Source: a virus. From it: 13,568 nucleotides of DNA. The stretch lies in the IMG/VR virus record IMGVR_UViG_3300037808_001901. One strand, given 5' to 3'. The position numbers were made by a program, and so were the translations under genes. Below, in pieces: positions 378 through 12,569 of the stretch; the first letter of the stretch is position 1, and each line of letters starts with the position of its first letter. Under the pieces are notes generated by a model that saw only the letters and a program-made list of their open reading frames with translations, was not told the origin of the DNA and made no database searches.

Positions 378-707
378 CTAAACCTCATACTTACCAACAT
401 AGTCCTCAAATAGCAAGGTTTCTTCATATTTGTAGGGCACTGTGTCTACTTCATGATCAAAATTCTCAGGATGCCCATTTAATCGATATACAGCTATTCT
501 TGTGCCTTGCTTGGGGGTTCTTTTGAAAAATACGTTAAGCACTTTCATTCCAAGCTTTTCTTCTTCAACAGACCCATCTTCTCCAAGTTCAATCCACCAT
601 AATTTTGGTGGTACTTGAATGGTAGCTATAACTTCGTCCTCAAGACCATCTCCCGGCCCGCCAAAAAACTCGGCATCAAATCCCCATCCATTTCCTTCCA
701 TCTGCAT
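378..707 (-). CDS. hypothetical protein (109 aa)
   Basis: ATG-initiated ORF. Its ATG shares one nucleotide with the TAA stop of the upstream methyltransferase gene (TAATG at 705-709), which suggests translational coupling. No recognisable motifs. Confidence 0.5.
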   Translation of the reverse strand: MQMEGNGWGFDAEFFGGPGDGLEDEVIATIQVPPKLWWIELGEDGSVEEEKLGMKVLNVFFKRTPKQGTRIAVYRLNGHPENFDHEVDTVPYKYEETLLFEDYVGKYEV

Positions 708-1534
708 TATAATCCGCCTTCTTCGTAAGTTTTCATAAAGAAACTACGGTCAATTGTTTTGTCCCACTCTTCCTTTTCTTTTGGATATGCGAAAATATTT
801 CCCGATACTACAAAGTTGACAACTCCATCGTCATCAACAGTATCAAACACATCTATTTCGTTTCCGTAAAAATTGTCAGAATTAAATAGTGGAGGACGAT
901 GAAACATGTGACTGTAATCGTTCTTGTTTAAAAATTCTATGACCTTCTCTGATTCTTCTTTGCTCTCAGCTTCGATATAGAGAAATGGTCTTGTTCTTTT
1001 AATTGTTTCTGTTGCTCCATTTAGAACGTCTAATTCTTCGCCCTGAACATCTATTTTGATCAAATGAAGGGCAGATAAGCTGAGACTATCAATTGTGCAT
1101 GTAGCAACTGGTATGCATAACATGTCTTCTTTGACTTTATCTGTTGAATTATCCCCGAAGTTGCCTTCTGCCTCGTAGTTTAATACTGGCATTCCACGAA
1201 CTTCGCCACTAACATTACTTGCCAACCTTTGAAATACAGCAGTATTTGTAAGGTTATTGATGGCGACATTGCCGCAAAGGATGTGGTATATGTATTGTTG
1301 TGGCTCAAAAGCCACCATATAGCCCCCAGAACCGATTTTCTGAGCTAATGGGACTGTGATCCCACCTATATTAGCTCCGCAGTCTATGACCACGTTACCG
1401 GGTTCTATGAGGGTCTTAAGAAAAGAAACCTCATGATAAGAGAATTCACCATATAAATCGAAGGATTTCCCAACATATTTGTCTTTGTTGGGGTGAATAA
1501 AAGGTCCGTATCTGCTGTCTTTTACAATATTCAT
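707..1534 (-). CDS. FkbM-family SAM-dependent methyltransferase
   Basis: 275-aa ATG ORF. VIDCGANIGGITVPLAQKIGSGGYMVAFEPQ and LIKIDVQGEELDVLNGA correspond to the glycine-rich SAM-binding motif and the later 'IDVEGxE' motif of FkbM-type methyltransferases. Confidence 0.7.
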   Translation of the reverse strand: MNIVKDSRYGPFIHPNKDKYVGKSFDLYGEFSYHEVSFLKTLIEPGNVVIDCGANIGGITVPLAQKIGSGGYMVAFEPQQYIYHILCGNVAINNLTNTAVFQRLASNVSGEVRGMPVLNYEAEGNFGDNSTDKVKEDMLCIPVATCTIDSLSLSALHLIKIDVQGEELDVLNGATETIKRTRPFLYIEAESKEESEKVIEFLNKNDYSHMFHRPPLFNSDNFYGNEIDVFDTVDDDGVVNFVVSGNIFAYPKEKEEWDKTIDRSFFMKTYEEGGL

Positions 1535-1798: not shown

Positions 1799-4489
1799 TT
1801 ACTGAGGGGCTTGAGTACGTTCAGCACCTCTTGTCAAGGCACCCAAAAATGGTGCCAAGCGTTCCGATCCGCCCAAAATTTGGGTGATCACTTCAACGGC
1901 ACTCTTGCCGCCGATCATTGTCTGGACACTGGTAGCCTCAGCGATCTTGACCGCAACATCATCACGGCTGAGAGCGGTAAGAGCTTCGGTGAATCCACCT
2001 TCCAGAGCAGCGAACTGAGCAATCAAAGCTTCGGAGTCAACCTTCACGCCACCTTGTCGCAATTCTTCAATCGCCACACGACAAGCCTGAGTGTTTGCTT
2101 CCTTGTCTTTGGTTCGACGCATTTCAGCATCATGCGTAACTTGTTCATTGGCAGTTGCTGCCAAAGTAATGTCTTTTCGAGCAACTTCTTGCTCAAGGTC
2201 AGACTTAATCACAGCCAGAGAGTTGGTCAGATTAAGAGTGGTAGTTTCTTGCTGAATTTCAGCTTGGAAACGAACCGTCTCTTGTTTTGCGGTCAACTTC
2301 TCTTTGCTGATTCGCTCATTTTCCACAGTCAACTCAAGGTCACGTTTGGCGTTTTCCAGACTGATGTTCTGGACAACAACGTTCTTTCGAGCTTCGTCGA
2401 GAATCTGAGCAATTCGCTCATCATTCAGTTGAAGATCAAGGACTTCAACGTCAGTGACACGCATACCGTTTTCACTGAAGTACAGACCAGTGAGATCGGT
2501 TTCATCATCAGTGCCATCTTCGGCCTGTTTTGCCAATCGCTTCAACTTGGGGTCTTCTGGATTCTTCACCTTATGAAGAATCGTATCTCGGACAATCGCC
2601 ATACCATTCGTGTAGAACTCTTGAATGGTATTTTGTTTTGCCACACTCTTGAGAATCGACCGGGTGTGGTCGCACAACAGTTTGACGTAATTCTCAACAT
2701 CGAACCAATGTTCTTTGAGTTCTGAATCGAAGTTGACACGATAAGCCAACTTGATCTTAACCTCAATGTTGTCAGAGGTTTCGACGGTAAGCCAATCACT
2801 CACCTTGTTGTTGCTGACACGTAAGTAGACGGTCGGCATCAAGTTGTCAGTGTTTTTCGGCTTGCCCATTGACAATTCGAGAACTTCGAGATTTTCATCG
2901 TAGTCCAGCAAAATGGTCTTGGGGCCAAGTTCGACACGACGTTCGCCAGTCTTACTCACGACCTTGACAGCATAACCTGTCCATAGATCGATAGATGGGA
3001 CATTATCGAACTTACTGCCGACAACAACGGACTTCGGGCCTTTGCGAGCCTGACGACGACCAGCAGCACCACCACGACTTCCAGAAGCTTCGCCCTTTCG
3101 GGTTCGACGACCAGCGTTCTCAAGGTCATCGCTGATTGCTTCAAGACCTTGTGACGAAGTGTGGCCAGCGTAAGAATCGGCTTGACGTGCGAAGTCTTTT
3201 TCGGAGACCAAACCAGATCGACCTGAATTAGATGTTTCCATCATATCTTCAAGTTCGGCATTGTAGGCTGAGACTTCTGCGTTCTCAGGATACATAAGCC
3301 GACATTGACCTTGGCTCAACACACGACGAACAACAAGTTCTTCTCGTGGGTCAGGGAGCAACATCTTGGGGCCGACAATGGTTTCCACATTGCCAGATTC
3401 ACGGTTGAGAAGGTAACGACCTTCACCCTTGGGAATCTGCAAAGCGTAATGCTTGGCATCGGGGCCGAATTGGATGATGGAATGCTCTTTACGTGGGAAG
3501 TAAAGGGCGTTCATTCCGCCAGTGATGAAGATTTCTTCGCCTTCTTTGAAAGACTCGTCGCCATCTTCATAATCTTCGATGACCTTAACATGGATGCCTT
3601 GAGTTTTGTGCAACTCAACGGCTTTGGCCTTTCGGTTTTTGCCTTGTTCCACGAAGGTTTCAGTCGGTTCAGGGAAAACAACTGCTGGTCCACGACAGAA
3701 CCGCTTGTCGCCATTTTCATCGACAAGGATTGTGTGTTCCAGACGTTCAAGCGTAACCGCATCACGAACATAGTTGTTGCCTTCGGGGACAACTTCGACA
3801 CCAGTTGGTGGAATATAGAAACTGCTGTCAGTTCCCTTGATGACGAATAACTTGCCGATGGTCAAATTAAGTTCTTCGGCAGTTGTCGTTGCGTCAATGG
3901 TAGTAGCTTCAGTTTCGCCGTCATTGTTGTCGGCAAGACCACCAGTTTCACCAGCATTAGCTGGCTTGAAGACAGCTTGATCCCAATTTGCCCGTGCTTC
4001 TTCTTCATTGTAAATACGAATGAGAAGATATTGGTTGGACCGTAGGCGATGGCCGGGGATAACGGTCGAGATTTGGCCGGGCCACAAAGCGAAAGTCTTT
4101 GGACCGGGAATGTTAATCTTGCTTCCCATTACAAGAGTCGGGCTGTTTTGTCGATCACTCTCGTTGAATTTGGGGTGTGCTTCATTCTCATTGGACGAGG
4201 GATTTTTGAGAACAATATATTCTCCCTCAGCAGCAATGGGGCACATTCTGACCGAAGCATTCAGATCGCAAGTTCTGAATCGGCCTTCTTCTGCATCGAA
4301 GCCGACTGGACGATCTTGTCCTGTTTGGTTGATCGTACAAGGACCAACACCAACACCAACTCGACCGGACGTTTCGCCTTGCAAATAGGCGTATTCACCG
4401 GGAGCTAAAACTAAGTCACGATCAGCACTTCTGGGTCCACGTTCTCCACCGCCTTGCATGTTACTTCTCCGAAAGTTAGGGGTTTTCAT
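1799..4489 (-). CDS. mvp: major vault protein (MVP) homolog, 896 aa
   Basis: The 896-aa ATG ORF aligns by eye along its whole length with eukaryotic MVP. N-terminal vault repeats: PGEYAYL..VGVGPCT vs PPYHYIH..VEVGPKT; GEYIVLKNP vs HYCTVANP; SFYIPPTGVEVV vs GTYIPRKEVEVV. Shoulder: LAYRVNFD vs LAYNWHFEV; NYVKLLCDHTRSILKSVA vs DFVGDACKAIASRVRGAV. This is followed by a long Ala/Glu/Gln-rich coiled-coil cap-helix segment. An alternative start at Met11 (ATG 4459) has a better SD (GGAGAAG). Confidence 0.85.
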   Translation of the reverse strand: MKTPNFRRSNMQGGGERGPRSADRDLVLAPGEYAYLQGETSGRVGVGVGPCTINQTGQDRPVGFDAEEGRFRTCDLNASVRMCPIAAEGEYIVLKNPSSNENEAHPKFNESDRQNSPTLVMGSKINIPGPKTFALWPGQISTVIPGHRLRSNQYLLIRIYNEEEARANWDQAVFKPANAGETGGLADNNDGETEATTIDATTTAEELNLTIGKLFVIKGTDSSFYIPPTGVEVVPEGNNYVRDAVTLERLEHTILVDENGDKRFCRGPAVVFPEPTETFVEQGKNRKAKAVELHKTQGIHVKVIEDYEDGDESFKEGEEIFITGGMNALYFPRKEHSIIQFGPDAKHYALQIPKGEGRYLLNRESGNVETIVGPKMLLPDPREELVVRRVLSQGQCRLMYPENAEVSAYNAELEDMMETSNSGRSGLVSEKDFARQADSYAGHTSSQGLEAISDDLENAGRRTRKGEASGSRGGAAGRRQARKGPKSVVVGSKFDNVPSIDLWTGYAVKVVSKTGERRVELGPKTILLDYDENLEVLELSMGKPKNTDNLMPTVYLRVSNNKVSDWLTVETSDNIEVKIKLAYRVNFDSELKEHWFDVENYVKLLCDHTRSILKSVAKQNTIQEFYTNGMAIVRDTILHKVKNPEDPKLKRLAKQAEDGTDDETDLTGLYFSENGMRVTDVEVLDLQLNDERIAQILDEARKNVVVQNISLENAKRDLELTVENERISKEKLTAKQETVRFQAEIQQETTTLNLTNSLAVIKSDLEQEVARKDITLAATANEQVTHDAEMRRTKDKEANTQACRVAIEELRQGGVKVDSEALIAQFAALEGGFTEALTALSRDDVAVKIAEATSVQTMIGGKSAVEVITQILGGSERLAPFLGALTRGAERTQAPQ

Positions 4490-4511: not shown

Positions 4512-4541
4512 CCATTGTACGAAAATTTTCGGCAAAGTAAA
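4512..4541 (-). promoter_or_regulatory. conserved sigma70-like promoter motif, copy 1 (minus strand), upstream of the MVP gene
   Basis: Minus-strand reading: TTTACT(-35, 4541-4536)-16 nt-TACAAT(-10, 4519-4514). 25 of 30 positions are identical in all three copies (4512-4541, 8665-8695, 10251-10280), including the invariant CCATTGTACGAAAA block. It sits 23 nt upstream of the MVP ATG. Confidence 0.55.
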
Positions 4542-6300: not shown

Positions 6301-6583
6301 TCATCTTTTCCTCAGCTTCTTTCAATTTAACAACAGCAAATTCAAGTTGTTCTCTATATGCTCCAACTTCTTCGGCTGATGAAAAAGAAACCTTAACGTG
6401 ATTACCACAATGGTTCTTGTAGTAAATCTCAATTGAAGATTCTTTGTTGGTCTCTTCAACTGTGACTGTAACTGAGGGTGCTGGTGGTGGAGGCGGAGTT
6501 TCTGGCCTTTCACACCCTGCTACAAGTAAAACAACAATTGCTGCCAAAGAAACAAGTTCGGCCCATAATGGCTTATTCATCAT
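6266..6583 (-). CDS. predicted lipoprotein with proline-rich linker (105 aa)
   Basis: N-terminus MMNKPLWAELVSLAAIVVLLVAGC has a hydrophobic h-region plus the lipobox L-V-A-G-C. The Cys is followed by ERPETPPPPPAPS and then a small C-terminal domain. ATGA overlap with the stop of the upstream gene (6580-6583). Confidence 0.6.
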   Translation of the reverse strand: MMNKPLWAELVSLAAIVVLLVAGCERPETPPPPPAPSVTVTVEETNKESSIEIYYKNHCGNHVKVSFSSAEEVGAYREQLEFAVVKLKEAEEKMNASNTGDTADE

Positions 6584-7167
6584 ATTGCCTCAAATCGGAA
6601 CATCATTTCGTGTACGATCTTTTGAGGATCGAACATTATGCCAGCGTCATCCATTGTGAATTGTTTGTCCCACTTGTCTGTCGCTTCCCAAGTTGGGTCA
6701 ATAAGCTCAGGCTTATTCTTCTTAACCCATGCCTCTAGGAATTCGCAGTCAGTGTCTTCATCATTGCCAATCGCAGCTTTATCCTTGTAATTCCAAACGT
6801 TGCCTTCTTTGGGAATATACGCTCGGAAAGTTTTACCATCTTGGTCAAGATAAACAATGAACTTAATGGGATATTCCCAATCGCCACCAGCAGACCAGCC
6901 AATGAGAGAGAATTGGGTTAAAGGAGATCGAGTCCAAAAAGTTCGTGGGCCTAAGATGCTACACTCAGCCCCGAATTCTTCGTGATCATAAGAGTAATTC
7001 TCAAAGTCAAATTGGACCTTATCAAGATCACTCTGGAATTTTGGACCTAAGCAGTCGAATTCGTAAGGACTAATCCCTTTGCCGCCAAATTTTTCATGGA
7101 ACATTTCCAAGAGTTGGCTGGGATTAACACGTTTAGTCGAACAGGCTTTACGTCTGGCTTTTGGCAT
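6580..7167 (-). CDS. hypothetical protein (195 aa)
   Basis: ATG ORF. It overlaps the upstream gene by 20 nt. No recognisable motif. Confidence 0.5.
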   Translation of the reverse strand: MPKARRKACSTKRVNPSQLLEMFHEKFGGKGISPYEFDCLGPKFQSDLDKVQFDFENYSYDHEEFGAECSILGPRTFWTRSPLTQFSLIGWSAGGDWEYPIKFIVYLDQDGKTFRAYIPKEGNVWNYKDKAAIGNDEDTDCEFLEAWVKKNKPELIDPTWEATDKWDKQFTMDDAGIMFDPQKIVHEMMFRFEAI

Positions 7168-7756
7168 GAACTTCTTCCCACATTAGGAATGCTTCTGATT
7201 CAAGTGCGTGAATCAAACCTTTTGATTCATCCGTTAACTCTTGTGTGTATTCTGGAAGCACAGATGCGGCTCTTACAAGAGAATGTGATTTTATAACTTC
7301 CTCATTAAAATCGTAGCCCGCTTCACTAAGGAAATGGGCCAAACAATCTCTCAAGTTTTCCGTGGTTCCAACAAGATCACAAACCTCTAACAGCCCTTTG
7401 TATCTGGATGTTAAAAATGGGTGATTCCCGTTGCATTCTCTTTGGGTGACGTTTTCAACAAATCGATTAAGATCGTCACTCCAAGCATCTTCTCCCCAAA
7501 GTCTTGTGCAGAACTTCCTACTTCCGTTCAGGAGATAGAAAGCGTGAAATGATTTGTACCATGCGTGTGGATGGCGAAAGACTGTAGCTGTTAAGAATGC
7601 AGGATCGTTGGTTATTTTCTCAACTGCATCTTCAACATTTTTTCTTTCGAAAAGTTTTCTGAGAACGTGATTAACAAAAGAGCCACCATGTTTTGAAACG
7701 TGGTAGAACTTGAGTCTCTTTCCTTCTTTGAGTGGAGAATAATATCTTACATTCAT
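7148..7756 (-). CDS. putative sulfotransferase-like protein (202 aa)
   Basis: KFYHVSKHGGSF resembles the 5'-phosphosulfate-binding F-x-H-[IV]-P-K-[TS]-G-G-[TS] loop of Sulfotransfer_2-type enzymes. The start is set at the internal ATG 7756 because the longer ORF (to 7798) would run into the tRNA at 7760-7863. The ATG lies 3 nt after the tRNA 3' end. Confidence 0.45.
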   Translation of the reverse strand: MNVRYYSPLKEGKRLKFYHVSKHGGSFVNHVLRKLFERKNVEDAVEKITNDPAFLTATVFRHPHAWYKSFHAFYLLNGSRKFCTRLWGEDAWSDDLNRFVENVTQRECNGNHPFLTSRYKGLLEVCDLVGTTENLRDCLAHFLSEAGYDFNEEVIKSHSLVRAASVLPEYTQELTDESKGLIHALESEAFLMWEEVHAKSQT

Positions 7757-7759
7757 GAG

Positions 7760-7863
7760 TGCCCCTAGCAGGACTCGAACCTGCACGCCTTTCGGCACTA
7801 GTTCCTATCGTAGGGTTGTTTAACCCTTAAAACTAGCGTGTCTGCCAATTCCACCATAGGGGC
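7760..7863 (-). tRNA. tRNA-Leu(TAA), type II, with a 22-nt insertion (intron-like) in the anticodon loop
   Basis: Minus strand: GCCCCTA-TG-GTG-GAATTGGCAGA-CAC-G-CTAGT-[TTTAAG|GGTTAAACAACCCTACGATAGG|A]-ACTAG-TGCCGAAAGGCGT-GCAGG-TTCGAGT-CCTGC-TAGGGGC-A. Perfect 7-bp acceptor, long variable arm, discriminator A, canonical D and T arms. 29 nt lie between the anticodon-stem halves, against the normal 7. Confidence 0.6.
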
Positions 7864-7986
7864 ATAATCTGCTTTATGCGTTGCTCCAACACGCCAATTT
7901 TAAATGAGTGGCCACCCAAATTAAATCGACTATAGTCCGAACATTCACATATCGCTGCTATTGTCCAAGGATGCAATGGATGTGAA

Positions 7987-7995
7987 ATTATACCA
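7987..7995 (-). promoter_or_regulatory. candidate extended -10 element (TGGTATAAT on minus strand) upstream of the solo tRNA-Leu
   Basis: Revcomp of 7987-7995 is TGGTATAAT. No good -35 hexamer was found. It lies about 120 nt upstream of the tRNA 5' end. Confidence 0.3.
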
Positions 7996-8030
7996 ATGTC
8001 CCTCGGTTTTAGAGCAACGCATGAAGCAGA

Positions 8031-8417
8031 TTATTCGTCTAAGGACTCTACTTCCGTGACAAAGTATGTAGTAGCCCCCTTCCAACTTTGAGAACTACGT
8101 TGTTCACGATAGTGTATCTTGACTCGTTTGCCAGAATCCATAGCATCTTCAACTTGCTCAACAACGCTTTCGCCATCTTCGGGCGGATAAACGCTGAACT
8201 CCCATTTTTCACGTTGGCCACCTTGATCGATGGCACCCATAGCAAGTTCGCCTTCCCATGTTTTTACCCAACTCCCTTTGTGAGAGAATTTGACAACAAC
8301 ACCGACTCGGCTACCTTCTGAGTAGGTCCAACCAGCAGACGAAAACCACAAATACACTCCGCCACCTAAGACCCCCACAACCGCAAGAATCATGGCAACT
8401 TTTTTGGCTTTATCCAT
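8031..8417 (-). CDS. membrane-anchored hypothetical protein (128 aa)
   Basis: N-terminal hydrophobic helix (VAMILAVVGVLGGGVYLWF). ATG start. Its ATG shares one nucleotide with the TGA stop of the upstream ORF (TGATG). Confidence 0.55.
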   Translation of the reverse strand: MDKAKKVAMILAVVGVLGGGVYLWFSSAGWTYSEGSRVGVVVKFSHKGSWVKTWEGELAMGAIDQGGQREKWEFSVYPPEDGESVVEQVEDAMDSGKRVKIHYREQRSSQSWKGATTYFVTEVESLDE

Positions 8418-8608
8418 CAGTCAGTCCTTCCATTTAATAAGCGTCCAAGAGACACTCGTTTCCCGGCTTGATTAGTGCTTTCGGGGTATTTTTCTTTTGC
8501 ACAGTCATTATCGCAAAAGAATTTATCCTCTAAAAAGCATCCTGTCCATTCCCAATTGAAGGTACGCCCACAATTGCAACACACCTTCTCAATTATATCC
8601 TCAGCCAT
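8417..8608 (-). CDS. small Cys-rich (zinc-ribbon-like) protein, 63 aa
   Basis: CCNCGRTF..C..C...C pattern. ATG start, about 55 nt downstream of conserved promoter copy 2. Confidence 0.5.
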   Translation of the reverse strand: MAEDIIEKVCCNCGRTFNWEWTGCFLEDKFFCDNDCAKEKYPESTNQAGKRVSLGRLLNGRTD

Positions 8609-8664
8609 TTCGCTTCACTCCATTTAGTGGAGCGAAAGCCCCGGAATCAAATTGTAGGTGCATT

Positions 8665-8695
8665 CCATTGTACGAAAATTTTGGGCAATGTAAAG
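8665..8695 (-). promoter_or_regulatory. conserved sigma70-like promoter motif, copy 2 (minus strand)
   Basis: Minus-strand TTTACA(8694-8689)-16 nt-TACAAT(8672-8667). It shares the CCATTGTACGAAAATTTT..GC.A.GTAAA core with copies 1 and 3. It lies immediately downstream of the terminator at 8697-8736. Confidence 0.55.
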
Positions 8696-8696
8696 C

Positions 8697-8736
8697 AAAA
8701 AAGGAGGGCGAAACAGGTCATTATCCCGTTTCGCCC
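8697..8736 (-). terminator. rho-independent terminator (minus strand)
   Basis: 9-bp stem GGGCGAAAC (8706-8714) / GTTTCGCCC (8728-8736) with a 13-nt loop. On the minus strand it is followed by CTCC and T6 (plus-strand A-run 8697-8702). Confidence 0.6.
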
Positions 8737-8860
8737 AAAAGCGGCAGTTTCTAATTATATTTCAGGACGGTGTATCAGGGGTTTAGCCTCCTGCCGCTTA
8801 CTCGTTACTCGACTTTTATACGAGTGAGTTTAATTTATCGGCCAAACTACCAATACGTGA

Positions 8861-8982
8861 CCCTAGCGATGTTTTTACGGAAAAGATATCGCCAAACCCG
8901 AAGGCATTATAAAATCCTTCATAGCGATGTTTATGTGGGAAATTTAATCGCCAATAAAACCGAAGGCATAACCTTCACTCTA
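8861..8982. repeat. two imperfect ~60-bp tandem units, each containing nested inverted repeats
   Basis: Unit 1 (8861-8920) and unit 2 (8921-8982) each contain tAGCGATGTTT..ATCGCCAA(A/T)..CCGAAGGCAT..CCTTCA. GCGAT/ATCGC and GAAGG/CCTTC inverted repeats give two hairpins per unit. The region is non-coding, in the 3' region of the amidase-like gene and before the 8697-8736 terminator. Confidence 0.5.
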
Positions 8983-8999
8983 TAGTAGTGTTGCTAGTG

Positions 9000-9653
9000 T
9001 CAATCTTCCCACCAAGGACAAAGAACTCTGCTTTTTTTACAAGCATATTGAGAAGTTCTTTGTACCCACACCCAACAAGTGTTGTCATCGCAGTCATTGG
9101 TTAACATCACAGTTTTTCCCTCACTTTTTACAAAGTGAGAAAGTCTTTCTTTGGGATGATAATGGCGATTTAACTTATACATGATGCCCGCAGGGAATTG
9201 TTTACAGGGGTTGCCTCTTAAAGCAATCCCTCCACGCAGCAATGTTCTTGTTGTAAGTTCTCCGCAATGGATTCCTTTGCCAATCTTTCCTCGAAGATAA
9301 CTCCAAATGCTATACTCTCTATCTACTTGGTTTTCCAAGTAAGTACGCATTTTAAGTGCTTCGGCTCTGTTGTACAGAATCTTTGGCTTCATCAGCCATA
9401 TCTTCATTTGACGATTATGTTTTCTGTTGTGATTCTCTATTTCTTTAACATAATCAGAAAGGAGCAGTTTCCTGACCCTTGGAGGCTCAGCCTCATATAC
9501 CCACAGTTCCTCTCCAATATTAAAAAGCATCGCAACATGGGTATAAGGACTATCGGTTTCGTTTTCGACTATCCTATTGCCACCCTCGATAAATAACATT
9601 GTACCATCGGGACAGCTTGCTAATAATGTTGTTGCTAATATAATTGAATACAT
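9000..9653 (-). CDS. predicted lipoprotein, permuted papain-fold amidase/peptidase (YaeF/YiiX-like, C92 family)
   Basis: N-terminus MYSIILATTLLASC carries the lipobox L-A-S-C. YTHVAMLFNIGEE resembles the conserved SHVAIFLGE His segment and IHCGELTTRTL the C[SG]E Cys segment. The His-before-Cys order is typical of permuted NlpC/P60-like YaeF/YiiX lipoproteins. Confidence 0.55.
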   Translation of the reverse strand: MYSIILATTLLASCPDGTMLFIEGGNRIVENETDSPYTHVAMLFNIGEELWVYEAEPPRVRKLLLSDYVKEIENHNRKHNRQMKIWLMKPKILYNRAEALKMRTYLENQVDREYSIWSYLRGKIGKGIHCGELTTRTLLRGGIALRGNPCKQFPAGIMYKLNRHYHPKERLSHFVKSEGKTVMLTNDCDDNTCWVWVQRTSQYACKKSRVLCPWWED

Positions 9654-9777
9654 ATGATAGTTATAACATAGGGATTAACTTTTATTTATCATTTCTGCTG
9701 CCACCATATTGGGAGGAGTAGTGATGGAATATGTCCGCTGGCTGATAAAGCGGGATGGATTGTTTCAGCATCTTCTT

Positions 9778-10095
9778 CTAGGTCTGCCCACCTCGATACT
9801 TCGTTTCAAGCTGTTCCCATTCAAGCTCCAAACCGACAACTGGAGAAAGAGAACGAGCTTGACCAGCATAATAGTGATCTCGGTCACGCTGTCTTTGTTC
9901 TGCTACAGCTTTGCCATTTCTATAAAGCTGATTAAGCCTGCCTGTGCTTTTTGTCAAAAATGTCCAACAGGGTTCACAAATCCAGCCATCATCATCTGGT
10001 TCGACGCAAATGATTCGGCCTTGATGTTCATCTGAACGGCATCCACAATTTGGGACAAGACACGTTTGAACTCGAACTCGGATTAGATCATCCAC
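9778..10095 (-). CDS. Cys-rich hypothetical protein (105 aa), GTG start
   Basis: C-x4-C-x-C..C-x9-C-x2-C pattern. The only available start is GTG at 10095, 18 nt after the tRNA-like gene at 10114-10219. A competing plus-strand ORF (ATG 9724, strong GGGAGGAG SD) overlaps it antisense. Confidence 0.4.
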   Translation of the reverse strand: MDDLIRVRVQTCLVPNCGCRSDEHQGRIICVEPDDDGWICEPCWTFLTKSTGRLNQLYRNGKAVAEQRQRDRDHYYAGQARSLSPVVGLELEWEQLETKYRGGQT

Positions 10096-10113
10096 ATGAG
10101 TAGCCTTTTAAGG

Positions 10114-10219
10114 TGTCCAAGGTGGGACTCGAACCCACAAGCCCATTACGGGCGGCAGATTTTAAACGGTGGGTTGACTAACCCATGTCTGCTGTGTTTG
10201 CCAATTTCACCACAAGGAC
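10114..10219 (-). tRNA. type II tRNA-Leu-like gene with a 21-nt anticodon-arm insertion and two T-T mismatches in the acceptor stem (possibly a pseudogene)
   Basis: Minus strand: GTCCTTG-TG-GTG-AAATTGGCAAA-CAC-A-GCAGA-[28 nt: CATGGGTTAGTCAACCCACCGTTTAAAA]-TCTGC-CGCCCGTAATGGGCTT-GTGGG-TTCGAGT-CCCAC-CTTGGAC-A. Removing ATGGGTTAGTCAACCCACCGT leaves the loop CTTAAAA (anticodon TAA). The D-arm is near-identical to the tRNA at 7760-7863. Conserved promoter copy 3 lies 30 nt upstream. Confidence 0.4.
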
Positions 10220-10250
10220 AAGATGTACCTTTCAATTTCGGTGTCCAGCA

Positions 10251-10280
10251 CCATTGTACGAAAAAAAATTGCGATGTAAA
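10251..10280 (-). promoter_or_regulatory. conserved sigma70-like promoter motif, copy 3 (minus strand), upstream of the tRNA-like gene
   Basis: Minus-strand TTTACA(10280-10275)-16 nt-TACAAT(10258-10253). It abuts the TAG stop of the XRE-like gene (10282-10284). Confidence 0.55.
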
Positions 10281-10281
10281 C

Positions 10282-10533
10282 CTAAGAGCAACCACGTTCT
10301 TCATCTTGGTGACAATCGTGACCAAAGATTACTTCTTGGGTTTTTCTCCCAAAAACTTTGGCGACACACTGCATTTGACCCTTTGTAGGACTCCATTGCC
10401 GACCAACAATTCTTGAGGTTATTCCTTTGGGAAGATTACATTGCTCACAAAGAGCATCGCAACTCATATCGTTTTCTTTTAAGAGTTCATCAACCCAAAG
10501 AGGTTTTCTGAGAGTGACGTTTATAACAGCCAT
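10282..10533 (-). CDS. XRE-family helix-turn-helix transcriptional regulator (83 aa)
   Basis: CDALCEQCNLPKGITSRIVGRQWSPTKGQMQCVAKVFGRKTQEVIF matches the HTH_3 pattern (..LA...G.S...ISRIE.G...P......K.A..FG....E.F). Confidence 0.55.
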   Translation of the reverse strand: MAVINVTLRKPLWVDELLKENDMSCDALCEQCNLPKGITSRIVGRQWSPTKGQMQCVAKVFGRKTQEVIFGHDCHQDEERGCS

Positions 10534-10549
10534 TGCCCATTTTCTCCAA

Positions 10550-10576
10550 TAAAAAAGTTACCATATCTAGGTAACC
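10550..10576 (-). terminator. possible terminator-like hairpin overlapping the S4 gene stop
   Basis: GTTACC (10557-10562) / GGTAAC (10571-10576), a 6-bp stem with a 7-nt loop. On the minus strand it is followed by T6 (plus-strand A-run 10550-10555). The stem is short and AT-rich, so this is weak. Confidence 0.3.
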
Positions 10577-10761
10577 GTGGCTGATTTTTTGGCTTTAATG
10601 CCCACTTCAATAAGGTCGCCTTTTCCGACCATTTTGTCAATATCAAGAATCTTTGTCCCATCAACTCGAACACCGCCCTGACAAATTAGACGACGAGCTT
10701 CAGAACAAGAGACAACAAGCTTTAAATTAGCCATTTCCCGCACTAGGTTTTTGTCTTCCAT
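10567..10761 (-). CDS. S4-domain RNA-binding protein (64 aa)
   Basis: SEARRLICQGGVRVDGTKILDIDKMVGKGDLIEV follows the S4 motif (ARRLI.QG.V.VNG......D..V..GD.I). SD AGGAG precedes the ATG. It overlaps the upstream gene by 19 nt. Confidence 0.6.
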   Translation of the reverse strand: MEDKNLVREMANLKLVVSCSEARRLICQGGVRVDGTKILDIDKMVGKGDLIEVGIKAKKSATVT

Positions 10762-11261
10762 ATCTTCTCCTCTACATCAAATGTTCTTGCCAATACAAAC
10801 AAGTAATCGCTTAAACGATTAAGATAAGGAACAACAAGAGCAAATCTTCTGATGGAATCCGGTGTTGAATCTTTTCTCTCTGCTTCCCAAGCAGAAACCA
10901 CTCTTTCTGCTCTTCGACAAACAGTTCTTGCCACATGAATCTCAGGAGTGGATTTTGGAATAATGAAATTCTTTAATTCTGGCAAATCACTTTCCATAAG
11001 ATCAATAAGCGATTCAAGCTGGGTAATATCGTCTTCTGTTATTCTTGTGTTCCCTATCGCAAGTTGTGCCCCTATTTCCATCAGGTCTCTTTGAATTTTC
11101 TCTAAGACAGGCACATCCATTATTTTATCTCGGATCATTCCAATCCAAGCATTAAGTTCATCAATTTCACCTTGTCCATCGACAGAACAATCATGTTTTG
11201 GAACACGCATCCCACTGCTTAATGTGGTCCCGTTATCGCCGGTTTTTGTGTAAATTTTCAT
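10743..11261 (-). CDS. ATP:cob(I)alamin adenosyltransferase, PduO/MMAB-type
   Basis: N-terminus MKIYTKTGDNGTT is the signature start of PduO-type corrinoid adenosyltransferases (MKIYTRTGDKGxT). GEIDELNAWIG matches the following conserved helix. 172 aa. ATGA overlap with the S24-like gene. Confidence 0.75.
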   Translation of the reverse strand: MKIYTKTGDNGTTLSSGMRVPKHDCSVDGQGEIDELNAWIGMIRDKIMDVPVLEKIQRDLMEIGAQLAIGNTRITEDDITQLESLIDLMESDLPELKNFIIPKSTPEIHVARTVCRRAERVVSAWEAERKDSTPDSIRRFALVVPYLNRLSDYLFVLARTFDVEEKIWKTKT

Positions 11262-11575
11262 TTTGATGTTATCTTTTTGACTACGCCAAATACTTGGTTT
11301 TGGCTAATTGTACCATTGGTGTGATTTTTGTTGTTGCCGATTTGAAAGCGGTAACCACCCATTTTCTGGGTCACAGCTTGGACAAGGTGAACATAGTGAT
11401 TACCATTCACCTTACAAAAAACAACAGAACCTTTTTTGATCTTAGAATAGTCCTTGATGGGAACTACTTTTATTTCATCGCCAGAACAAATCAGTGGCTG
11501 CATTGAGTTGCCTTTCGGCCTAAAACTCACTGAGTTGCCTTTCTTCAATTCTTCTTTATGCCCATCCCAATTCAT
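11258..11575 (-). CDS. S24/S26-like serine peptidase domain protein (LexA/UmuD C-terminal-domain-like), 105 aa
   Basis: PKGNSMQPLICSGDEIKVV matches G-[DN]-S-M-x-P-x(4)-GD-x-[ILV]-x-V around the nucleophile Ser. A later KIKKGSVVFCKV supplies a candidate general-base Lys. SD GGAG lies 7 nt upstream. Confidence 0.55.
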   Translation of the reverse strand: MNWDGHKEELKKGNSVSFRPKGNSMQPLICSGDEIKVVPIKDYSKIKKGSVVFCKVNGNHYVHLVQAVTQKMGGYRFQIGNNKNHTNGTISQNQVFGVVKKITSK

Positions 11576-11934: not shown

Positions 11935-11970
11935 AAGATCAATATAACATAAATAATCTTATAAGAAAAG

Positions 11971-12059
11971 CGGTGAGGACAGGATTTGAACCTGCGGAGG
12001 GTATTTCACCTCTTCGGTTTTCGAAACCGACGCCTTAAACCAAGCTCAGCCACCTCACC
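11971..12059 (-). tRNA. tRNA-Ser(CGA), type II
   Basis: GGTGAGG-TG-GCT-GAGCTTGGTTTAA-GGC-G-TCGGT-TTCGAAA-ACCGA-long variable arm AGAGGTGAAATACCCTCC-GCAGG-TTCAAAT-CCTGT-CCTCACC-G. Canonical cloverleaf, discriminator G. Confidence 0.8.
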
Positions 12060-12065
12060 GTAAAG

Positions 12066-12145
12066 CGGAAAAGACGGGAATCGAACCCGCATGACCCTTT
12101 CGGGCCAACTTGTTTAGCAAACAAGCCCGGCGACACCACACTTCC
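12066..12145 (-). tRNA. tRNA-Ser(GCT)-like gene with truncated or aberrant D-arm (possible pseudogene)
   Basis: Anticodon arm CTTGT-TTGCTAA-ACAAG, long variable arm GGCCC-GAAA-GGGTC and T arm GCGGG-TTCGATT-CCCGT are intact. Only 13 nt lie between the acceptor and the anticodon stem (about 19 expected). The acceptor stem has one T-T mismatch. Confidence 0.4.
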
Positions 12146-12165
12146 GGCTCTCTTCCAGTGTCAAG

Positions 12166-12249
12166 CGGAGGACACGGGATTTGAACCCGCAAGCCATATT
12201 TCAGACCAACTGCTTTCCAAGCAGTCCGCTAACCGTTCGCTTATCCTCC
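12166..12249 (-). tRNA. tRNA-Ser(GGA)-like gene with non-pairing D-stem (possible pseudogene)
   Basis: Acceptor GGAGGAT/GTCCTCC, anticodon arm ACTGC-TTGGAAA-GCAGT and T arm GCGGG-TTCAAAT-CCCGT are present. The D region AAGCGAACGGTTAGCGG contains a direct repeat (AGCG..AGCG) rather than complementary halves. The variable arm is poorly paired. Confidence 0.4.
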
Positions 12250-12319
12250 ATTATGATGGCTGCAACTCAGGGACTTTTAGCCCGCAGCAGGGTAGTCTTA
12301 TTCCTGAGCAATCATCAAG

Positions 12320-12400
12320 TACCCGTGGCGAGAGTCGAACTCGCAAGCCTTGCGGCACCAGATTCTAAGTCTGGCGTGTTTACCGTTTCACCACACGGGC
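12320..12400 (-). tRNA. tRNA-Leu(TAG), type II
   Basis: GCCCGTG-TG-GTG-AAACGGTAAA-CAC-G-CCAGA-CTTAGAA-TCTGG-TGCCGCAAGGCTT-GCGAG-TTCGACT-CTCGC-CACGGGT-A. Canonical cloverleaf, G1-T72 wobble, discriminator A. Confidence 0.8.
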
Positions 12401-12404
12401 ATAG

Positions 12405-12478
12405 TAGCACTGGTCGGAGTCGAACCGACAAACACTTAGTTTTAAGCTAAGCCGCTTTGCCAATTAGCGTACAGTGCC
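12405..12478 (-). tRNA. type I (short variable arm) tRNA with anticodon TAA (Leu by anticodon)
   Basis: GGCACTG-TA-CGC-TAATTGGCAAA-GCG-G-CTTAG-CTTAAAA-CTAAG-TGTTT-GTCGG-TTCGACT-CCGAC-CAGTGCT-A. Canonical 74-nt cloverleaf, discriminator A. 5-nt variable loop, which is unusual for a Leu decoder. Confidence 0.6.
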
Positions 12479-12484
12479 AAAAAG

Positions 12485-12564
12485 TAGCCTTGGTGGGAGT
12501 CGAACCCACAAAATCACCAGATTCTAAATCTAGCCGCTTTGCCATTAGGTTTGCGTACAAGGCC
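12485..12564 (-). tRNA. type I tRNA with anticodon TAG (Leu by anticodon), long D-loop
   Basis: GGCCTTG-TA-CGC-AAACCTAATGGCAAA-GCG-G-CTAGA-TTTAGAA-TCTGG-TGATTTT-GTGGG-TTCGACT-CCCAC-CAAGGCT-A. 15-nt D-loop and 7-nt variable loop. Discriminator A. Confidence 0.5.
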
Positions 12565-12569
12565 ATAAG

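Follow-up and report, generated by a model that had tools for sequence, protein, structure and literature searches.

In the 13,568-nt stretch of the IMG/VR virus record IMGVR_UViG_3300037808_001901 (hereafter the window), which is DNA of a large marine phage, by its sequence a tailed phage of bacteria, the minus strand from position 10219 to 10114 encodes a class II tRNA-Leu(UAA) gene, here termed G2, whose anticodon loop comprises 28 nt instead of 7 nt. The excess is a 21-nt insert containing a small hairpin, and a sister gene, G1, a class II tRNA-Leu(UAG) gene at 7760-7863 on the same strand, carries a 22-nt insert of the same type. Comparison with relatives of this phage, which include lineages with and without the insert, suggests that G2 is a functional tRNA-Leu(UAA) gene that would be transcribed from its own sigma-70-type promoter, and we lean towards the interpretation that the insert is an intervening sequence which would be excised from the precursor by an endonuclease, with the resulting ends being resealed by an RNA ligase.

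Read from 5' to 3', G2 begins with GTCCTTG TG GTG AAATTGGCAAA CAC A GCAGA [ CATGGGTTAGTCAACCCACCGTTTAAAA ] TCTGC C GCCCGTAATGGGC and continues with TT GTGGG TTCGAGT CCCAC CTTGGAC A. A Leu-type D loop on a 3-bp D stem (GTG-AAATTGGCAAA-CAC), a long variable arm (GCCC-GTAAT-GGGC), a T arm (GTGGG-TTCGAGT-CCCAC) and a 7-bp acceptor stem (GTCCTTG/CTTGGAC), in which U-U mismatches at 5-68 and 6-67 lie directly side by side, make up the cloverleaf of a bacterial class II tRNA-Leu; the discriminator base A73, at 10114, is an A in every ortholog as well. What departs from this plan is the anticodon loop, i.e. the 28 nt CATGGGTTAGTCAACCCACCGTTTAAAA enclosed by the anticodon stem GCAGA/TCTGC: as encoded, it is not a 7-nt loop with U33 and a leucine anticodon, and it becomes one—C-U-UAA-A-A, with the anticodon UAA at 10164-10162—only once 21 nt are removed. 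Positions 1-73 of the tRNA span 106 nt with the insert and 85 nt without it. Alignment with the insert-less genes of two related contigs (L018 5905-5988 and L627 1871-1955) delimits a 5' exon at 10187-10219 (acceptor 5' strand, D arm, anticodon-stem 5' strand and C32), which is followed by the insert ATGGGTTAGTCAACCCACCGT at 10166-10186, drawn here at 32/33, and by a 3' exon at 10114-10165 (U33, UAA, A37 and A38, anticodon-stem 3' strand, variable arm, T arm, acceptor 3' strand and A73), all on the minus strand. A first-pass annotation of the window had already described a solo type II tRNA-Leu-like gene at this place, with a 21-nt anticodon-arm insertion, stem halves 28 nt apart, intact variable and T arms, two T-T mismatches in the acceptor stem, a D arm nearly identical to that of G1 (the two agree at 17 of 19 positions) and, after removal of the insert, the anticodon TAA in the loop CTTAAAA. 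All of this is borne out here, the insertion also by ARAGORN run with its intron search (option -i) and the loop also by the insert-less orthologs.

With this option, ARAGORN reports G2 as tRNA-Leu(taa) with a 21-nt intron and G1 (called at 7759-7863) as tRNA-Leu(tag) with a 22-nt intron, and G2 from which the 21 nt have been deleted in silico is called as an ordinary 85-nt tRNA-Leu(UAA). By default, i.e. without intron search, ARAGORN misses both genes; like Rfam at its gathering score, it recovers an array of 11 tRNA genes at 11970-13553, not G2. Runs with a forced minimum intron length were discarded, since they mis-called variable arms as introns. The Rfam tRNA model does match G1, with 47.2 bits and a 24-nt loop insertion.

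The hairpin of the G2 insert, GGGTT-AGTC-AACCC (10171-10184, minus strand), has a stem of 5 bp, or of 6 bp if the flanking T-A is counted, and a loop of 4 nt; the 5-nt loop of the first-pass annotation (GGGTT-N5-AACCC) had come about by counting one A twice. Exact GGGTT-N4-AACCC occurs twice in the window, once inside each of G1 and G2, and the earlier suggestion to look for further such hairpins within RNA genes, followed up in the window, thus turned up the exact motif nowhere else. If one mismatch is allowed, five matches are found against 0.39 expected, a number reached in none of 200 shuffles. In G1, the 22-nt insert TAAGGGTTAAACAACCCTACGA occupies 7808-7829 and its hairpin 7813-7826 (both minus strand), with ambiguous boundaries that can be drawn from 33/34 to 35/36. 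The inserts generally conform to a hairpin of the type GGGYY-ARNC-RRCCC, with the loop consensus A-R-N-C and a 4-bp core that is paired in all ten insert-bearing sequences and conserved with compensatory changes, one of its pairs being GC, AU or CG and another UA, CG or UG.

Relatives were retrieved as syntenic contigs (designated by L numbers) via homologs of the 217-aa ORF located between G1 and G2. Insert-bearing G2 recurs in four further lineages, with the same hairpin as in the window in L013, with GGGTTAGACAACCC in a 22-nt insert in L015/L237, with GGGCTAGACTGCCC in L212/L210/L626 and with GGGTTAGACAGCCC in L021, the insert as a whole being varied in L013, L015, L021 and L212/L626. In L018/L232 and L627, G2 is uninterrupted and has the loop CTTAAAA. 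The G1 insert is present in window/L212, L013, L015, L021 and L022; G1 is uninterrupted, with the loop TTTAGGA, in L018-L020 and L501 (L018 8738-8820, L501 239-321). Among longer contigs of relatives, ERZ26661968 NODE_17 (170 kb) and Ga0452216_001469 (53 kb) have the insert, and ERR594346 k127_743273 (65 kb), SRR26538807_3512 and SRR14610198_359576 do not. Precise uninterrupted alleles in relatives of an intact interrupted gene, by which phage tRNA intervening sequences are recognized, are found here. At the G2 locus, moreover, an insert-less ortholog is an ordinary tRNA that shares its promoter and the arrangement downstream of it with the insert-bearing genes. When the lineages are ranked by the identity of their 217-aa protein to that of the window, those at 85, 84 and 78% carry the insert, the one at 70% lacks it, the one at 68% carries it and the one at 64% lacks it; L501 is a close relative, with a vault-like ORF (see below) that is 92% identical, and yet its G1 has no insert. 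Such an interleaved distribution would fit either precise losses that occurred repeatedly or gains through recombination when phages co-infect a cell. Wherever the state of both genes can be seen, it is the same for G1 and G2, with insert in five lineages and without in L018, and this linkage fits dependence on one shared trans factor.

From the two inserts of the window, the first-pass annotation had argued for a shared element rather than random decay, and it had proposed aligning them with homologous tRNA genes of related genomes. This alignment supports the argument, in that orthologs retain the insert, its hairpin covaries and precise insert-less alleles exist; that no other genome carries the insert, which would have spoken against a shared element, is contradicted by the four further lineages. 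The insert seems confined to a small clade, since a metagenome scan for G2-like tRNA-Leu(UAA) genes gave at least 120 loci and 108 of the matches listed have a normal 7-nt loop. A megablast search of 7000-11000 against the phage collection found nothing, and the related complete genomes LR756500/501/503 (39% vault-like identity) have no tRNAs within 20 kb of the vault-like gene. G1 and G2 are not an assembly artefact, because their sequence is identical in at least seven assemblies made independently, including a 196-kb contig of JGI sample 3300072015. Samples that contain the phage are ENA ERZ4231638, ERZ4199535 and ERZ4231644/45, JGI 3300037842, 3300037875 and 3300072015, and SRR12939245. 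Over both genes, the contigs in which the window's own proteins are encoded agree with it at 100% and thus show no variation.

An alignment of 12 distinct G1 and G2 ortholog sequences, ten of them with insert, reveals what has been conserved. Taking the cloverleaf and the insert hairpin together, 93% of cells are paired and 15 of the 29 pairs have changed on both sides, values which none of 500 shuffles reaches, with slid controls being 31-48% paired; RNAalifold independently finds the cloverleaf together with the 4-bp core of the insert hairpin. The six bases that precede the 3' strand of the anticodon stem (TTAAAA, i.e. U33, the anticodon, 37 and 38) are invariant in the G2 orthologs, and the segment in front of the stem 3' strand of G1 (TAGGA) is nearly so, whereas the tail of the insert just upstream of the anticodon segment (4-6 nt) varies in sequence and length. 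An anticodon segment that stays invariant next to a varying tail is expected only if the anticodon is used.

The gene has its own copy of a sigma-70-type promoter motif, TTTACA-N12-TTCGTACAATGG at 10251-10280 (minus strand), which is kept upstream of G2 in L013, L021, L018, L212 and L627. Its hexamers read TTTACA-16-TACAAT from 10280 to 10253, with the -10 hexamer ending 33 nt before the start of G2, in agreement with the conserved promoter that had been noted about 30 nt upstream. The 30-nt motif occurs three times in the window, always on the minus strand (4512-4541, 8665-8694 and 10251-10280), against 0.03 expected. Immediately before the copy at 8665-8694 there is a strong terminator hairpin, at 8706-8736.

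The same type of insert occurs in a third tRNA species. In L301, an 89.9-kb IMG/VR contig (IMGVR_UViG_3300018080_000148) without protein similarity to the window in the portion compared, a tRNA-Phe(GAA) gene at 666-761 (minus strand) is interrupted at 32/33 by the 22-nt AGGGGTCAGGCAACCCCATGAA, which shares with the window inserts the stem type, the A-R-N-C loop and the position 5' of U33. When IMG/VR was scanned for the consensus of the hairpin together with the T loop, at least 120 matches were obtained, and L301 is the sole tRNA-context match among those listed. The exact hairpin plus T loop found one chance match outside any tRNA in IMG/VR, and a scan of genome contigs for GATTTTAA-N3-7-hairpin used too loose a pattern, its at least 120 matches being random, with no convincing tRNA among those listed.

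Where the junctions would lie is narrowed down by the alleles themselves. The non-canonical position 32/33 given by the first-pass annotation matches the insert-less orthologs exactly (C^insert^UUAAAA, carets marking the junctions), but 31/32 fits equally well: either choice is compatible with every ortholog and yields the insert-less allele. The predicted spliced G2 junction is GCAGAC^TTAAAATCTGC, i.e. ACAGCAGAC^TTAAAATCTGCC, for 32/33 and GCAGA^TTTAAAATCTGC, i.e. GCAGA^TTTAAAATCTGCC, for the 31/32 alternative; for G1 it is GCTAGTTT^TAGGAACTAG. In four G1 orthologs, the excisable unit consists of UA, a 16-nt hairpin frame and AYRA and is always 22 nt long, and yet it slides within the loop, from 33/34 in the window to 32/33 in L013 and L015 and 31/32 in L021. 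Compared with L013, the window G1 is longer by one T on the 5' side of the hairpin and shorter by one on the 3' side, and the product is still TT-TAG-GA, i.e. the loop of L501; these one-base shifts offset each other, so that a 7-nt loop containing U33 is still possible in the window G1. Pairing between anticodon and insert can be drawn in the window G1 (CCUA/UAGG), but neither L015 nor L021 conserves it. If distances are counted from the hairpin frame, all eleven sequences are compatible with cuts 2 nt upstream on the 5' side and 3-4 nt downstream on the 3' side, with the G2 orthologs, whose inserts are 21 or 22 nt long, requiring a 3' distance of 3 or 4 nt. We read this as cuts that would be placed by the hairpin.

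In the mechanism towards which we lean, the hairpin would be the recognition element for a trans-acting endonuclease, encoded by the phage or the host, which would cleave the precursor on both sides, a few nucleotides away from the base of the hairpin, and an RNA ligase of the RtcB or Rnl type would reseal the ends to a normal 7-nt loop, C/U-U-UAA-A-A. Ligases of both types are common in large phages and bacteria. G1 and the tRNA-Phe of the other phage would use the same machinery. Two ORFs of the window were considered as correlates of the insert and rejected. A 195-aa ORF (6580-7167) at first tracked the insert as a potential trans factor and was then excluded by L501 and L504: in L501 it lies beside a G1 that lacks the insert, and its place in a 634-kb phage is among NAD-salvage genes, with no tRNA nearby. 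A 105-aa S24-peptidase-like ORF (11258-11575) is absent from the one insert-less lineage that covers the region, but it is a weak correlate and a plain S24 domain with no RNA link.

Several points weigh against excision and religation. The status of the insert as a mini-intron, and with it the excision and the enzymes, is something that we infer from conservation patterns. No candidate gene for a processing enzyme or ligase was found in the ~20 kb of each genome covered, and we know of no protein-dependent tRNA splicing endonuclease in bacteria or their phages. The flanks between hairpin and junction vary in length, and no single ruler, whether laid along the tRNA body or the hairpin, fits all eleven sequences. 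G2 itself has the two U-U mismatches in its acceptor stem, and the Rfam tRNA model RF00005 finds no match in 10114-10219 even at E<=10, let alone at its gathering score. Finally, the array at 11970-13553 holds unsplit tRNAs with the anticodons UAA and UAG, so that the split copies might be dispensable.

Two of these points, i.e. the missing splicing enzyme and the unsplit tRNAs of the array, would also suit an alternative that we consider unlikely, namely that the insert is never removed and the 106-nt RNA is a tRNA-shaped, non-decoding molecule. It could then act as RNase P/Z punctuation before the next ORF, as a non-ribosomal leucine acceptor or as a decoy for host anticodon nucleases or tRNA-binding defence proteins. 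Since the anticodon is not read by bacterial LeuRS, the insert need not prevent charging, and G1 and G2 lie just 3 and 18 nt upstream of ORF starts. A non-decoding RNA, however, does not account for the anticodon, U33 and positions 37-38 being invariant in insert-bearing orthologs despite the variable tail next to them, nor for one-base shifts being compensated in such a way that a 7-nt loop stays possible; and since the insert-less orthologs are ordinary tRNAs in the same setting, punctuation needs no insert.

Still a little less probable in our view is an element that acts at the DNA level, either a selfish insertion or an immunity against a free-standing homing endonuclease that targets the anticodon-loop DNA of tRNA genes; it would spread or be lost by recombination during co-infection, with its effect on the RNA being tolerated or secondarily handled. 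The interleaving of presence and absence among relatives, including close L501 without the G1 insert, would be explained in this way, as would the same hairpin type in tRNA-Phe of an unrelated phage, and HNH endonuclease genes do occur in or beside the tRNA arrays of relatives. At 21-22 nt, however, and without terminal repeats or a consistent target duplication, the insert is far below the size of known mobile elements, and hairpin covariation together with the invariant anticodon shows selection on the RNA. Moreover, such an account explains spread and not tRNA function, and thus complements splicing rather than replacing it: the spread of an excisable insert might be favoured if the insert destroys a homing-endonuclease target.

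That G2 is a pseudogene in decay, disabled by the insertion and the acceptor mismatches, or partly degenerate, as had been suspected from these mismatches, is highly improbable even with its lack of an Rfam match and a fold z-score of just -1.1, since the promoter is conserved, the U-U mismatches are kept unchanged in four diverged orthologs in which the anticodon stem and the T stem (GTGGG/CCCAC to GTCGG/CCGAC to GCGGG/CCCGC) have changed in a compensatory manner, and in L021 the insert occurs together with an acceptor stem free of mismatches, which is also fully paired in L018 and L627.

If the insert is excised as proposed, it would differ from each of the known systems that it recalls. Bulge-helix-bulge (BHB) introns of archaea and eukarya are similarly short (~12-60 nt), lie in or near the anticodon loop, at archaeal positions such as 32/33, and are removed by an endonuclease and RtcB ligase. 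The insert in the window, however, has no BHB, i.e. no 4-bp exon-intron helix between 3-nt bulges, its flanks being unpaired and its junctions lying at the base of one hairpin; moreover, the host is bacterial, we know of no EndA homolog in bacteria, and no EndA-type endonuclease was found in the ~20 kb covered per genome. The group I intron of bacterial and plastid tRNA-Leu(UAA) shares with the insert the tRNA species, the loop and the existence of intron-plus and intron-minus alleles, but it is self-splicing, has a P1-P9 core that needs more than 200 nt and is located at 34/35, whereas the insert comprises 21 nt and lies 5' of U33; no Rfam match to an intron or ribozyme was obtained in 7500-10500, which also speaks against a known small ribozyme. 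In phage T4, Pnkp and Rnl1 repair anticodon-loop breaks after cleavage by PrrC. The sealing by this phage ligase takes place at 33/34, next to the putative junctions described here; however, it mends damaged tRNA, and the removal of an encoded insert is no part of it, and no ligase gene is present in the genome parts covered. Reviews of RNA repair in jumbo phages list RtcB, Rnl1 and Rnl2 ligases as well as nucleotidyltransferases, and no tRNA splicing (PMC7824862). Intervening sequences of 23S rRNA are likewise extra stem-loops in a stable RNA gene that are excised post-transcriptionally and patchily distributed among relatives, but they have at least 90 nt and long helices cut by RNase III, and leave the RNA fragmented without ligation; a tRNA broken in its anticodon loop does not decode.

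Some further identities were considered for the insert and rejected. With a helix of only 5-6 bp, it is no RNase III substrate; an RNase P mimic (a hairpin followed by ACC) is not supported, since L015, L021 and L212 do not keep the ACC tail; and a MITE- or REP-like element does not fit two copies in the window, with the ‘TA’ flanking the G1 insert being part of the anticodon and not seen in G2.

The closest precedent consists of the tRNA introns of Lak megaphages, which were termed ‘enigmatic’ and whose boundaries were set by intron-less alleles (Devoto et al. 2019, Nat Microbiol; PMC6784885). As with G2, these are interrupted phage tRNAs whose interruption varies in presence among relatives and has no known mechanism. 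The Lak phages, however, are gut phages of Prevotella that use code 15, the tRNAs concerned are those for Phe, Gly, Thr and Tyr, and at least one intron is long enough for a tRNA; compared by description, the Lak introns have no reported conserved 14-16-nt hairpin and no reported position 5' of U33. Our literature search found no paper on short hairpin inserts 5' of U33 in phage tRNAs, and the Lak introns were the only precedent that came up.

Over-long anticodon loops are nevertheless more widespread. An IMG/VR scan for Leu-type D arms at too great a distance from the T loop gave at least about ten further phage tRNA genes with loops of 24-40 nt, and thus short anticodon-loop inserts are not rare in phage tRNA genes, even though the hairpins of these further inserts differ from the type in the window. 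They include Leu-type tRNAs in which the place of the cut decides whether the anticodon is UAG or UCA (L029 5142-5249, L061 3781-3887, L130 1610-1717), genes in which TTAACGG...CCGTTAA extends the anticodon stem (L057 7552-7666, L095 643-756) and a third group of Leu-type tRNAs with an anticodon-loop insert (L041 6617-6733, L103 5454-5572); insert sizes in the three groups are 21, 26 and 32 nt, and their hairpins differ. In a related marine contig of 114 kb (L502, MDTG01276646.1), a class I tRNA gene at 15162-15247 with the anticodon UCA, which would read UGA, is interrupted 5' of U33 by 13 nt; this region has 29 tRNA genes, and its tRNAs for Asn and Asp, 87-92 nt in length, have long variable regions. 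Other tRNA-like sequences came to light as well. L024, L025, L033, L036 and about 40 more IMG/VR loci have ~100-nt tRNA-like genes that start with TCTGGGGTGGTG and end with CCCCAGAGCCA, with a Leu-type D arm, a 7-nt loop with GTT at the anticodon and a ~30-nt variable region. L278, L303, L319, L322, L336 and L358 contain isolated 3' halves of a tRNA-Leu(UAG)-like sequence with no 5' half nearby, as one would expect of the sites at which integrating phages attach.

All genes of the window are on the minus strand, and its ORFs include a major-vault-protein-like protein, an FkbM methyltransferase, a DEDDh exonuclease, a phosphoribosyltransferase, a PduO-type adenosyltransferase and a small S4-domain protein. 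The host is bacterial, as indicated by a tRNA-Tyr of the long-arm type II in the array, sigma-70-type promoters, intrinsic terminators and homology to huge phages. The vault-like ORF (1799-4489, minus strand, 896 aa) has shoulder and repeat domains of the major vault protein (Pfam 1.8e-22 and 3.2e-12), is retained by all relatives and shares 39% identity with ORFs of uncultured huge phages of 462-735 kb, i.e. it is a bacteriophage homolog of the vault protein. Two genes upstream of G2, a stand-alone S4 domain protein of 64 aa (10567-10761, minus strand) is similar to the tRNA-binding domain at the C terminus of TyrRS; relatives have kept it whether or not they carry the insert.

Within the array, two 75-nt tRNAs (12404-12478 and 12569-12643, minus strand; ~62 bits in Rfam) have the leucine anticodons UAA and CAA and A73 without a long variable arm. 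All bacterial tRNA-Leu have a long variable arm, and these short-arm tRNAs, which occur across the phage family (L013 671-998, L018 3218-3669, L626 1486-1820), with the anticodon UAG in relatives, make one ask by which synthetase they are charged. An ORF of 411 aa with catalytic domains of class I aminoacyl-tRNA synthetases (tRNA-synt_1/1g) directly follows the tRNA array in the 85%-identity relative (L013 2005-3240, L014 808-2043) and is absent from the window.

Overall, the element described here is a variant of the poorly understood intervening sequences of phage tRNAs, with a defined motif and natural controls. It gives the ‘enigmatic’ phage tRNA introns a testable form, i.e. a defined hairpin, junctions and intron-less control alleles. 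As default tRNA finders miss such genes—ARAGORN without -i missed both G1 and G2, and Rfam missed G2—the tRNA repertoires of large phages are under-counted. To our knowledge, protein-dependent tRNA splicing is regarded as an archaeal and eukaryal trait, with bacterial tRNA genes being interrupted only by self-splicing group I introns. An insert that is short, structured, under selection, polymorphic in its presence and found in three tRNA species points either to an unknown RNA processing pathway or to an unknown use of tRNA-shaped RNAs. Tentatively, we propose that marine huge phages may possess a class of tRNA mini-introns—21-22 nt long, with a GGGYY-ARNC-RRCCC hairpin, located 5' of U33 in tRNA-Leu(UAA), tRNA-Leu(UAG) and tRNA-Phe(GAA), and belonging to neither the group I nor the BHB type—together with a pathway that removes them by means of a hairpin-guided endonuclease and an RNA ligase. 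If true, this would be a tRNA splicing system in the bacterial world, which might serve to time tRNA maturation during infection or to shield tRNA genes from homing endonucleases.

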